Shown here piece after piece: positions 9,199 to 12,303 of a stretch of 64,000 nucleotides of DNA. This stretch comes from an uncultured Planctomycetia bacterium. GTDB taxonomy: Bacteria; Planctomycetota; Planctomycetia; Pirellulales; S012-138. Positions within the stretch are counted from its first letter, which is position 1, and every line of letters begins with the position of its first letter. The stretch covers positions 209,959 to 273,958 of the forward strand of contig CAWEKV010000003.1 of NCBI GenBank assembly GCA_963809785.1, given 5' to 3'. Under the pieces are notes generated by a model. The model saw nothing but the letters and a program-made list of their open reading frames with translations. It made no database searches and was not told the DNA's origin. The position numbers and the translations under genes were made by a program.

Positions 9199-12100
9199 CT
9201 ACGGTTGTTGTCCCGCCCTGATCTCCCCGCCTTGTCGCCGGCTGCACTCCAAGCAGTGTGGAAGCAATTGCTGAGGGCCACCACCACGGTTCAGGGCATT
9301 GGGCGGCTGATGGTCTGGAACGAAGTCGCCGGATTTCGTGCCGGGGTCTTTTGTACCGCACGTATGACATCCGGTCCGGCGACCAATGTCATTGACCTGG
9401 CGTCGTTCAGCGGCCGTAAAATCTCTCCCTGGACCACGAGCAGGAATGGACTCACCGGAGTGCGGCCCTGGTCTCAAAGTAGATGGTCTCGACGTACTTG
9501 GAGGCCCACCTTGGAAGGACTCCCCCATGATTCTGACAGAGCCGGGCGAGTCGCTCTTTTCCCCGGGATGCAACCTTCCCTGAGCTTTTAGGGTCGGCAG
9601 ATAGTCGTTGTAAAATGAGCCGCCGGGGCTGGACTTCGGGCGAACAACGACGACCGGTGATCTGCCTCTACCAGTTCTATCGCGCCGGCCGAAGGACGCC
9701 ATAATGTCCCAGCCGTTTTTGGAATATTCGTGATGCCAAAATGCTCGCCAGCCGTGTTGCCTCACGAGCTCGCGATCGTGGTAGAGTCCATATTCATATG
9801 TACCGGGTATGGGACCAATTCGAGCCTCCGGCTTCGGCGGTGGAGCGTCTTTAAGCCGGATCCGCTCTTGTTCCTCCTCAGCATGCCGCCTAGCCACAGC
9901 CTCCCTGAGATCTTTCTCATAAAGCTCGGTGCCCAGGTCCTCGAGGCACAGATTCAGAAAGTCGAGTCCACGGAGATGGCGTTCGTATGCTTCGGCAGAA
10001 AGAGTTCCGTCTCTTATTCCCTGCTCGATGGCGCGATACCGTTGCGCAATCTCTTCAGATATCGCTGCCGCTTTGGTGGGATTGCTGCGGAAGGCGGCCT
10101 CCCTTCTGCCTTGTGCGGTGATCTCTTGAGCGCGAGATCTCCAATCCAGGCCGCTCGGATCGGTTGCGTTTGTCGGGCCGTTGCCGACCATCCGAGCCAG
10201 ATTGGTATCGCCGGCACTGAATCCGATCGGGTCTTCTTTGATCCAACGACCGGTCGCCGGGTCGAAAAACCGCCGGTCGTGCAGCTGCATGCCGGTCTCT
10301 TCGTCGCGCTCGGCGCCTTGGAAGCCGCCGAGGTGGTTGACCGCGGCGTTGGTCTCGCTGGTCACCTTGCCGAAGGCGTCGTAGGTGATGTGGTTGACGA
10401 CGCTAGAACCCGTCGTGTCGATGATGTCGCGGACGGAACCGAGGTTGTCGGTGAGCGGCCAGAGGACGCTGCCCACGGACGTGGGCATCTGGTTGGCGCC
10501 GGTCGGCGTGAACTGCTCGTCGGCCAGGATGTTGTCTTCCCCTGGACCGTGCAGGTAGCGGTTTGTCAAAGAGCTATGGCCGTTGAAGGCGAGCTGGATG
10601 TCCCAGCCGCCGTCGTAAACGTATTCTACGCCGACTGCCGCTCCCGCTCCAGCACCGTCCGCATCGATCGACTTCTTGATCCGGCGGTCGAAGACGTTGT
10701 AGGTGTAGATCGCTTCCTTCGTGACCGTGCCGGAATTGTTCTTGAAGGTGACCTTGGTGAGGCGGTTGTGGTGGTCCCAGGTGTATTCGGTGAGGTAGTC
10801 GTCGGCCGCGGCGCCCGAGATGCGCGTGCGGGTCAGGCGGTTTCCTTCGTTGTCGTAGGTGTAGTTGAAGGTGCCGTCGGACGTCAGGCGATTGTTCGTG
10901 CCGGTCGTGTAGCCGGTCATCGTCCGATTGCCGTTTTCATCAAACGCGTACGCTTCGTCCGTCTGGAACGAGTGGTCGGTGGCGGTGAGCTGGTCGGTAT
11001 TGTCGTAGGTGTACGTGCTGCTGCCATTTTGGCCGACCAGCGACGTGAAGCTCTTGCTCGTCAGGCGGCTATGGGCATCGAAGGCCCAGGTGTAGCTGGC
11101 GAACGTTGTAGCGTTCTTGGCGTGCGCGAGATTCGTCAGCCGGCCGATCCCGTCGTAGGTGTAGTCGGTGCTTGCGGCCAGGTTGCTCGACCCGCCGGCC
11201 AGGGCCCAATAGCGATCGATATCGGTGGTCTGCCCGGCGGCGTTGTAGGCGAAATCGACGCGCTTCTGATGGACCGAGTGGCCACCGGCCACGCCGTTTT
11301 GCTCGAGCCTGGTGAAGTGCCCGAGGTTGTCGTAGGTGTAGCCGGTCCAGAAGTCATCGACGAACGAGCCGCCGCCGACAGCGATCTGGCTGGAGAGCTT
11401 GGTGCGGCGTCCGGCCGCGTCGAATTCTTGCAAGAGCTTGACCTGCGGGCCGCCGTTATTGGACTGGATCAGCGTCACCCGGCCCAACGAGTCGTAGGTG
11501 TAGGTGTAGGACGAATACGTGTCGCTGGCCGAAGTCAACTGGCGGGCGGCGTTGTAGGCGAAAATCTGCGTGTTGATCGTGGCGGCGCCGTTCTTCCAGC
11601 GCTCTTCGATAAGGCGCTGGAGATTGTCGTAGGTGTACTCCGTCACGCGGCCGTTGCGGTCGGTTTTCTTCGTGAGACGGCCGGCGGCGTTGTATTCGAA
11701 CGTTCGCGCGTGGCCCAGCTCGTTCGTCTCGGTGAGGACGCGGTTCAGCCCGTCGTAAGCCCAGACCGTGTCGTTGTTCACCGGGTCGGTGAGCTGCGTC
11801 AGGTTGCTGGCGGCGTCGTGATGGTAGGTCGTCGTCGGACGGCCGAGCGGACCGGCGCCGTCGGGATCGGGCAAGAGGTCCTTGGTCTTGCGGTGGAGGT
11901 GGTCGTATTCGTAGTTGGTGGTCTTGCCCAGGGGGTCGGTGACGCCCGTCAGGTTGCCGGCGACGTTGTGGGCATAGGTGCTCGAGGGTGCCGCCAGCGG
12001 CCCGGCGCCATCGGGATCGGGCTGAATGACTCTCTTCAGGCGGCCGAGGTGGTCGTATTCGTAGCTGGTGACGCGCGACAACGGATCGCTGACGCTCGTG

Positions 12101-12303
12101 AGCTGGCTGTCGGCGTCGTACACGTAGTTCGTCTGCGGCGCCGTGAGCGGGCCAGCGCCGTCCGGGTCGGGCTGGGTCACGCGGGTGAGGCGACGCGCGT
12201 TGTCGTGGAGATACGTCGTGACGTTGCCCAGCGGGTCGTTCTCGCTGGAGTCGTAGTCGTAGAGATGCAGCGGCGCGGTTTTAACTGCGAGGAATGGGCA
12301 ATT
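9199..12303 (-). CDS. Rhs/YD-repeat protein, 5'-truncated shell plus C-terminal toxin tip
   Basis: Dozens of YD repeats are present (e.g. DPLSRVTSYEYDHLGRL, DPLGKTTNYEYDHLHRK, GRVTEYTYDNLQRL). The Rhs core end is RFFDPATGRWIKEDPIGFSAGDTNLARMVGNGPTNATDPSGL. The frame is open up to a stop at 12304-12306, and the first possible start is GTG 12178-12180. YD-repeat sequence (LHLYDYDSSENDPLGNVTTYLHDNARRL) precedes that GTG, so the N-terminus is missing. Confidence 0.9.
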   Translation of the reverse strand, partial: NCPFLAVKTAPLHLYDYDSSENDPLGNVTTYLHDNARRLTRVTQPDPDGAGPLTAPQTNYVYDADSQLTSVSDPLSRVTSYEYDHLGRLKRVIQPDPDGAGPLAAPSSTYAHNVAGNLTGVTDPLGKTTNYEYDHLHRKTKDLLPDPDGAGPLGRPTTTYHHDAASNLTQLTDPVNNDTVWAYDGLNRVLTETNELGHARTFEYNAAGRLTKKTDRNGRVTEYTYDNLQRLIEERWKNGAATINTQIFAYNAARQLTSASDTYSSYTYTYDSLGRVTLIQSNNGGPQVKLLQEFDAAGRRTKLSSQIAVGGGSFVDDFWTGYTYDNLGHFTRLEQNGVAGGHSVHQKRVDFAYNAAGQTTDIDRYWALAGGSSNLAASTDYTYDGIGRLTNLAHAKNATTFASYTWAFDAHSRLTSKSFTSLVGQNGSSTYTYDNTDQLTATDHSFQTDEAYAFDENGNRTMTGYTTGTNNRLTSDGTFNYTYDNEGNRLTRTRISGAAADDYLTEYTWDHHNRLTKVTFKNNSGTVTKEAIYTYNVFDRRIKKSIDADGAGAGAAVGVEYVYDGGWDIQLAFNGHSSLTNRYLHGPGEDNILADEQFTPTGANQMPTSVGSVLWPLTDNLGSVRDIIDTTGSSVVNHITYDAFGKVTSETNAAVNHLGGFQGAERDEETGMQLHDRRFFDPATGRWIKEDPIGFSAGDTNLARMVGNGPTNATDPSGLDWRSRAQEITAQGRREAAFRSNPTKAAAISEEIAQRYRAIEQGIRDGTLSAEAYERHLRGLDFLNLCLEDLGTELYEKDLREAVARRHAEEEQERIRLKDAPPPKPEARIGPIPGTYEYGLYHDRELVRQHGWRAFWHHEYSKNGWDIMASFGRRDRTGRGRSPVVVVRPKSSPGGSFYNDYLPTLKAQGRLHPGEKSDSPGSVRIMGESFQGGPPSTSRPSTLRPGPHSGESIPARGPGRDFTAAERRQVNDIGRRTGCHTCGTKDPGTKSGDFVPDHQPPNALNRGGGPQQLLPHCLECSRRQGGEIRAGQQP
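9202..10146 (-). other. Rhs C-terminal toxin domain (315 aa after DPSGL), HNH-like nuclease motif at the extreme C-terminus
   Basis: It follows the DPxGL cleavage motif at 10147-10161. The last ~60 aa read GCHTCGTKDPGTKSGDFVPDHQPPNALNRGGGPQQLLPHCLECSRRQGG, i.e. CxxC...DH..P..N...CxxC, the beta-beta-alpha-metal (HNH) arrangement. Confidence 0.5.

Follow-up and report, generated by a model that had tools for sequence, protein, structure and literature searches.

What does a long, intact open reading frame (ORF) of Rhs/YD-repeat sequence represent when it has no evident beginning? The question is raised by a window of 64,000 nucleotides from an uncultured Planctomycetia bacterium (contig CAWEKV010000003.1, positions 209,959 to 273,958), in which a minus-strand frame is open from position 12303 to a TAG stop at 9201-9199 (1034 codons; translation of 9199-12363). 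We consider it likely that this feature is a solitary orphan module of the rhs-CT/immunity type (CT, C-terminal toxin region), made up of a truncated shell, an intact toxin tip and an Imm21 immunity gene, and not exportable on its own.

On its upstream side the Rhs frame is closed by an in-frame TGA (12304..12306, minus strand), and the first ATG, GTG or TTG is the GTG at 12180-12178, codon 42 of the frame. The 41 sense codons between TGA and GTG (NCPFLAVKTAPLHLYDYDSSENDPLGNVTTYLHDNARRLTR) include none of these three start codons and only two CTG codons, at codons 13 and 26; our codon listing thus agrees with the original prediction, made from the sequence of this window, that the frame continues past the GTG up to the TGA without a start. 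The absence of a start codon is not significant by itself, a start-free run of 41 codons having p ~0.33 under the codon usage of the ORF (18 start-type codons in 678), and what signals truncation is therefore the onset of homology inside a repeat, without an N-terminal domain. Within the repeat unit ..RVTQPDPDGAG.., the GTG at 12180 encodes a conserved internal Val, and it is not preceded by a Shine-Dalgarno sequence. This is where the public annotation (P0001, 993 amino acids (aa), on a 930,111-bp contig) begins; its start was chosen by default and is not credible as a native one, and what is called a complete 993-aa protein is almost certainly a gene fragment. Among 120 homologues compared, called starts scatter over many positions of the repeat array, typically on M, V or L within ‘(M/V)TxPDPDG’ or similar, and the short homologues have no N-terminus in common. 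Homologues of similar length that genuinely start at the equivalent GTG were looked for, and none emerged from this scatter. The predicted lack of a plausible start consequently needs one qualification: the GTG is an internal Val without a Shine-Dalgarno sequence, but it exists and is annotated, so a short product could be translated from it.

Rhs homology sets in at ~12282, mid-repeat, with BLASTP and tBLASTN alignments beginning at 12279-12282 (residues 8/9, TAPLHLYDYDSSENDPLGNVTTYLHDNARRLTRV). The seven open codons ahead of this point (NCPFLAV, 12283..12303, minus strand) lie outside the BLASTP and tBLASTN limits, have no Rhs homology and mark the truncation junction. They are followed by a relic YD repeat (12181..12282, minus strand, delimited by alignment to P0003), which precedes the first start codon and aligns to the YD repeats of the relatives P0003, P0002 and P0090. 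The view that the codons before the GTG encode real repeat sequence thus holds for codons 8-41 and not for codons 1-7. Compared with the remainder of the ORF, the relic repeat is more diverged from P0003 (55% vs ~84% identity); 5 of its codons are deleted, and in its YD motif the Y is changed to H. This pattern of decay fits translation from the GTG, or gene conversion that does not reach the edge of homology.

No further Rhs sequence was found upstream of 12282 in any frame or elsewhere in the 64-kb window, where tBLASTN with seven relatives returned only 10141-12282, in one frame. This result bears directly on whether the truncation could be an assembly or sequencing artefact, in which the true gene would extend further upstream, a misjoin or concealed indels would lie at ~12283-12303, and the frameshifts of neighbouring genes would be errors of the same kind. 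Frameshifts do occur at short homopolymers in several genes of this assembly, such as the DUF502 gene and the xerC remnant described below, and the long paralogue P0090/P0003 on a 3.55-Mb contig is frameshifted too. Indels, however, cannot hide the 5' part, because none of the three frames upstream contains Rhs-like sequence. The 534 bp upstream resemble a normal spacer with a repeat element, followed by a divergent gene, and misassembly between rhs paralogues would give a join of repeat to repeat, not of repeat to unique spacer. The window has other intact genes of 3-5 kb as well, and we regard an artefact as very improbable.

Family members that retain their N-terminus are ~2100-2300 aa long and have Calx-beta domains. 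Measured against them, the fragment appears to be what remains of a large planctomycete Rhs gene, namely its 3' third, with the last 719 aa of the shell; the promoter-proximal two thirds would be lost, and with them the N-terminal region, the Calx-beta domains and ~1000 aa of additional repeats. A YD/RHS-repeat shell is clearly recognizable (Pfam RHS_repeat; matches to solved Rhs cocoons). Its length of 719 aa (678 from the GTG) falls short of the about 900-1150 aa of a closable shell, with solved closed Rhs cocoons at 1061-1152 aa and the Pfam TEN_YD-shell model at 909 positions. In a colinear match to 8qja (query residues 158-719 against chain residues 1318-1879), the first residue of the fragment would fall ~350 residues into a core of type VI secretion system (T6SS) type. 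Too short and beginning mid-repeat, the shell can therefore presumably neither close a cocoon nor carry an export signal. The fragment lacks the N-terminal delivery or secretion region and the plug of a complete Rhs toxin. This had been proposed from the length of the product, and is borne out by the mid-repeat onset, by the absence of any domain upstream and by P0090, which has a non-Rhs N-terminal region and also Calx-beta domains.

A short Rhs protein need not be a fragment if it is a TcC-like, natural half-shell of ~1000 aa that is completed by a separate TcB-like partner. The TcC proteins of ABC toxins have a length like that of the ~720-aa shell plus tip seen here, which is the one point in favour of such a reading. 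There is no same-strand gene upstream of the fragment, where the spacer is non-coding, and the window contains no TcB, SpvB or other Rhs sequence. The sequence matches in the PDB are T6SS-type Rhs cocoons and teneurins rather than TcC, and the N-terminus lies mid-repeat and aligns colinearly to internal sequence of longer paralogues. With neither an adjacent TcB-like gene nor a genuine protein start, the half-shell reading is already largely refuted, and we give it almost no chance of being correct.

The relatives that bear most closely on the missing part are found on a contig of 3,553,753 bp. There, P0090 (1337 aa) joins a non-Rhs N-terminal region to three Calx-beta domains, YD repeats and a frameshifted tail, which reads SASLRPIPMVQAR followed by a stop and is the shifted-frame reading of ...RVTQADPDGAGSL...; this stop overlaps the start of P0003, which opens (L->M)SAPQTNY. 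We infer that a frameshift divides a single gene into P0090 and P0003. Between P0003 and the window ORF identity is 82% (P0003 residues 52-725 against window residues 9-677), with identical runs of up to 50 aa. The joined paralogue would be ~2100 aa long before its tip, and the window would keep the equivalent of the last 719 aa. At least three frameshifts are visible in this paralogue: at the P0090/P0003 junction, as a compensated pair inside P0003 (KLRIRQSAPQDQGPLARSRRRRA where NYEYD..PDPDGAG is expected), and just before the DPxGL region. They are either assembly indels or signs of a decaying main gene.

The same contig encodes more truncated rhs genes, namely P0004 (764 aa, 86% identical), P0011 (747 aa, 91%) and P0108 (805 aa, 57%), which start at differing positions of the repeat on internal Val or Leu codons and each have a different tip. 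Its DUF502 gene is only a 46%-identical paralogue of that in the window, the nearest DUF502 orthologues in the database being 63-76% identical. Because no visible sister genome could supply Rhs cores that are 82-91% identical, the 3.55-Mb contig probably comes from the same genome as the window, as far as sequence comparison can tell. A scan of genome contigs for close-paralogue DNA returned only a 32%-identical locus. As for a near-identical, full-length recombination partner, a long paralogue and truncated modules exist, but they lie on another contig and their protein identity is 82-91%, short of near-identity. Of the other short homologues, P0062 lies where its contig ends, and P0055 probably belongs to a longer gene that is broken by a frameshift. 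A relative with 64% identity (L002 10001-14760) has a 933-aa truncated rhs, P0013, that starts with ATGATG, 8 codons upstream of the GTG-equivalent position. P0013 comes after an unrelated ceramidase gene, and behind it are two small ORFs and another rhs fragment; this too is an array of rhs fragments with no main gene in view.

The retained shell, from GTG 12180 to DPSGL (10147..12180, minus strand; Pfam RHS_repeat E=6e-51, 7 stretches), is 82-91% identical in protein sequence to P0003, P0004 and P0011, and the core is colinear with its homologues in a single frame from 12282 to 10141 (tBLASTN). It ends in the Rhs-associated core end RRFFDPATGRWIKEDPIGF...NATDPSGL (10147..10275, minus strand), which by its sequence, and by the role given to the motif in the Rhs literature, is the C-terminal autoproteolysis (self-cleavage) motif and the boundary between core and tip. 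The C-terminal motif DPxG-(~20)-DPxGL is present as FDPATGRWIKEDPIGF...NATDPSGL (residues 677-719), and DPxGL marks the start of the CT (PMC3967940). At 114 conserved columns the core has 12 deviations, against a median of 6 for its homologues and within the range of the others. As a test for relaxed constraint, this mild excess is not decisive.

Composition sets the core apart from what follows it. GC content at third codon positions (GC3) is 0.87 in the core and 0.80-0.86 in host genes, and drops to 0.57 in the linker, 0.55 in the toxin domain and 0.54 in imm21. Its host-like GC3 suggests that the core arose within the lineage. The tip is compositionally foreign, and this drop fits the decoupling of Rhs cores and tips, since Rhs tips are known to be displaced and evolutionarily decoupled from their cores (PMC2935791). 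The tip itself was probably laterally acquired and fused to the shell.

After DPSGL the tip comprises 315 aa, of which ~199 form a pre-toxin linker (9550..10146, minus strand; delimited by homology search, GC3 0.57). In a search of 5.8 billion proteins, the ~165 aa directly after DPSGL (9652-10146) had no homologues, and all matches covered the last ~100-150 aa only. This linker stretch is helical and rich in Glu, Ala and Arg. A change in GC3 phase at 9810-10050 was considered as a hidden frameshift in the tip and rejected, the peak lying at codon position 1 in a low-GC3 linker rich in Glu, Ala and Arg. The statement that the whole 3.1 kb is free of frameshifts can accordingly be upheld for the core and the toxin domain, both of which are colinear with homologues, whereas the 165-aa linker without homologues leaves room for compensating frameshifts. 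An intact 3.1-kb ORF is in any case not remarkable in itself, because the window has further intact ORFs of 3-5 kb.

The toxin domain (9202..9549, minus strand; assigned by identity to toxins and by motifs, with the stop at 9199-9201) is predicted to be an intact nuclease of the NGO1392-like (Tox-ALF) HNH/EndoVII type. Rhs, HINT-domain and SitA5 polymorphic toxins of many phyla have C-termini that match the last ~100 aa of the tip at 50-74% identity, and the alignment of the domain reaches within a few residues of the ends of its homologues. For NGO1392-like/Tox-ALF HNH/EndoVII toxins Zhang et al. give the motif set CxxC, DH, CxxC and Q (PMC3482391), and the tip contains all four on the minus strand: CHTC at 9358-9369, DH at 9310-9315, CLEC at 9244-9255 and Q at 9232-9234. 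Across 26 sequences, C61, H62, C64, D79, H80, Q81, C99, C102 and Q106 are invariant or nearly so. An AlphaFold2 model of the domain (predicted local distance difference test score, pLDDT, 86) forms a beta-beta-alpha unit around the invariant residues; since Foldseek gave no significant match in the PDB for this model, the fold assignment rests on the motifs. No Pfam or NCBIfam model matches the tip. Among the homologues P0121-P0240 the consensus of the domain (9202-9549) reads STLxPGPxAGESIPARGPGRDFTxxER..GCHTCG..PDHQPPNALN..PHCxxCSxxQGG. The domain is widespread: Chloroflexus, myxobacteria, Pseudomonas, Shewanella and Massilia have it, in Rhs, HINT and SitA5 lipoprotein settings.

Directly downstream lies a full-length Imm21 immunity gene (8653..9174, minus strand; Pfam Imm21 E=3.5e-31, profile positions 1-159 of 159), which starts 24 nt past the rhs stop with an ATG preceded at 7 nt by a GAGGG ribosome-binding site. 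Imm21 is given as an immunity partner of NGO1392-like HNH toxins (PMC3482391) and belongs to the listed partners Imm21, Imm13, Imm33, Imm38 and SuFu. The locus thus shows two marks of an orphan module: a 5'-truncated core without genuine initiation or export signals, and a CT toxin of its own whose cognate immunity gene lies next to it. The description of the ORF as a 5'-truncated, orphan-like core-plus-tip stands up well on the mid-repeat onset, the longer relatives, the scattered starts, and the intact tip with its Imm21.

Several observations nevertheless weigh against an orphan module awaiting recombination. It does not lie downstream of a main rhs gene: there is no other Rhs in the 64 kb and the upstream neighbour is a divergent DUF502 gene, and because the module is not behind a main gene the classical model of local displacement is not directly applicable. 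The paralogues reach only 82-91% identity at the protein level and lie on another contig, so that recombination competence is a prediction only. All 3.1 kb of the ORF are open, its core shows no greater degeneration than the cores of its homologues, and visible decay is limited to the 41 codons before the GTG, a pattern that would also fit translation of the stretch behind the GTG.

This last point leads to a different reading of the same locus, in which the fragment is translated in the producer, from GTG 12180, an in-frame CTG or an internal start, and forms with Imm21 an intracellular module resembling toxin–antitoxin (TA) or addiction systems, which stabilizes itself and is not a delivered weapon. 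A precedent exists in Salmonella, where main and orphan Rhs-CTs have internal promoters, a CTG translation start and type II TA behaviour (PMC7043789). The good conservation of the ORF after the GTG, set against the decayed 41 codons before it, the integrity of both toxin and immunity gene, and the in-frame CTGs at codons 13 and 26 would all suit such a module. Yet the GTG is merely the conserved Val of a repeat and lacks a Shine-Dalgarno sequence, and no sigma-70-like promoter was found within 8000-13000, in a scan that is weak for Planctomycetes. Conservation of the interior can also be explained by gene conversion with paralogues that stops short of the homology edge. On balance we think it unlikely that the module acts as a TA-like system.

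The flanks of the module add the remains of a recombinase. Directly after the imm21 stop lies the 3' remnant of a XerC-like tyrosine recombinase gene (8400..8608, minus strand, ~70 codons; Pfam Phage_integrase, tBLASTN in two frames), which matches NCBIfam NF002331 XerC (E=1.6e-33, positions 265-330 of 365), is 5'-truncated and has one frameshift at ~8558; no further recombinase sequence was found in the window. There are hints that this remnant is the trace of a mobile vehicle. No direct or inverted repeat of at least 10 nt, of the kind left by a target-site duplication or an att-like site, is common to both flanks of 8400-12303, and there are no tRNA genes or Rfam families anywhere in the window. 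A more speculative scenario, to which we attach little weight, is that long cassettes of rhs core, tip and immunity gene are moved across the chromosome of this lineage as units by XerC-like tyrosine recombinases, and not just displaced to a place behind a main rhs gene, and that the solitary copy is expressed from an internal GTG or CTG as a self-stabilizing pair.

Beyond the remnant, a glycosyltransferase family 4 (GT4) gene (7095-8100, minus strand) is spread over three frames in ~1.2 kb (ORFs 7095-7763, 7451-8053 and 7717-8091). It is probably a real pseudogene, because its frame breaks are denser than elsewhere in the window; ORF 8019-8318 (minus strand) may be a further N-terminal piece of it. 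On the other side, a spacer of 534 bp (12304-12837) leads from the fragment to the divergent DUF502 membrane-protein gene (12838..13787, plus strand), which bounds the locus. This gene has one frameshift, at ~13296-13317, in a run of short homopolymers (GGGAAAGCTGCTTTCGGG), and the public annotation calls only a 209-aa piece of it (P0243). That genes next to the module are frameshifted, as had been noted at the outset, is therefore correct. Among the nearest DUF502 orthologues, L003-L005 (63% identical) have only DUF502 itself in common with the window, and the contig of the 76%-identical P0244 begins at DUF502.

The spacer is, as originally described, non-coding and contains host repeats: none of its ORFs has a Pfam match, and it carries at 12621..12671 a double-hairpin element resembling a repetitive extragenic palindrome (REP). 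An in-frame ORF upstream of the fragment (12304-12714) was considered as an N-terminal domain behind a readable TGA, and was rejected as Arg/Pro-rich sequence that crosses the REP-like element and has no Pfam match. The element is ~50 nt long, has two hairpins (CGAAGCAGAGCTTCG ... GTTCCCAAGCGGAGCTTGGGAAC) and is dispersed across intergenic regions, with four direct copies (1924-1974, 12621-12671, 31272-31322 and 54407-54457) and two inverted ones (54336-54384 and 31104-31154) in the window; at 54440-54514 a 15-nt unit (GGAGCTTGGGAACGA) is repeated 4-5 times in tandem, as an expansion of the element's 3' part. Apart from this element, no copies of spacer sequence occur elsewhere in the window. 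Farther away, an ORF of 1629 aa (44143-49032, minus strand) with a coding-like GC3 of 0.80 contains tandem repeats of 240 and 249 nt (units of about 80-83 aa) and has no Pfam match.

The closest known counterparts of the module are the orphan rhs-CT/rhsI pairs of Enterobacteriaceae (e.g., Salmonella Typhimurium LT2 STM0292; PMC3967940, PMC3150448, PMC2935791). They too have a 5'-truncated core without initiation or export signals, a CT that starts at DPxGL with its cognate immunity gene directly downstream, a tip compositionally decoupled from the core, and full-length paralogues with a homologous core. Unlike them, the planctomycete module is solitary (the 64 kb contain no second rhs), retains 2.1 kb of core, abuts a recombinase remnant, and comes from a Calx-beta-type Rhs family rather than from the T6SS PAAR/VgrG type. 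A nearer relative is P0002, on a related planctomycete metagenome contig (JGI 3300056388), a long orphan (1338 aa) with a 66%-identical core, a mid-repeat start, its own tip and then a putative immunity gene, in this case an ankyrin. Unlike the window module, P0002 has a different tip and immunity gene and occupies the classical position, behind a 2303-aa Calx-beta Rhs gene and a 251-aa gene. With the NGO1392-like/Tox-ALF toxins (Neisseria MafB class, myxobacterial SitA5; PMC3482391), the tip shares its four motifs, the pairing with Imm21 and a location at the C-termini of RHS and HINT proteins; the domain in the window differs from them in that no Pfam or NCBIfam model matches it, and its nuclease role is a prediction.

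A tyrosine-recombinase gene adjoining an immunity gene and a toxin gene fragment also recalls the recombinase-associated acquired interbacterial defence (rAID) loci of Bacteroidales, which Ross et al. (2019) are said to have described as recombinase-associated arrays of orphan immunity genes and toxin fragments. Here, by contrast, the recombinase is a dead remnant of 70 codons beside a single cassette, with no array and no recognizable recombination sites. The resemblance is a lead and not a claim of membership.

If the locus is a solitary orphan rhs-CT/immunity module, as we favour, the fragment as it stands would be a silent toxin cassette. Orphan rhs fragments, which have no translation-initiation or export signals, come into use once they have recombined with the main rhs gene (PMC3967940). 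The 2.1-kb core fragment could likewise provide the homology for recombining the tip onto a full-length rhs paralogue, as in the Salmonella orphans. Meanwhile imm21, with its own ribosome-binding site, would be the gene most likely to be kept by selection, for it could protect the cell from the same toxin delivered by kin. The module may have moved here, perhaps carried by an element with a recombinase, or a resident gene may have lost its 5' part in place.

The feature is thus real but ordinary, orphan Rhs modules being already well described in other bacteria. Its value lies mainly in annotation: many planctomycete Rhs calls of ~700-1000 aa, in assemblies and metagenomes, likewise start on an internal Val, Leu or Met. 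Its tip also draws attention to a toxin domain that is widespread across many phyla and is currently covered by no Pfam or NCBIfam model. For the family, the locus adds a planctomycete example to a picture of orphan modules based on Enterobacteriaceae, one that is unusual in three respects: the core it retains is very long, it stands alone, and a recombinase remnant adjoins it.

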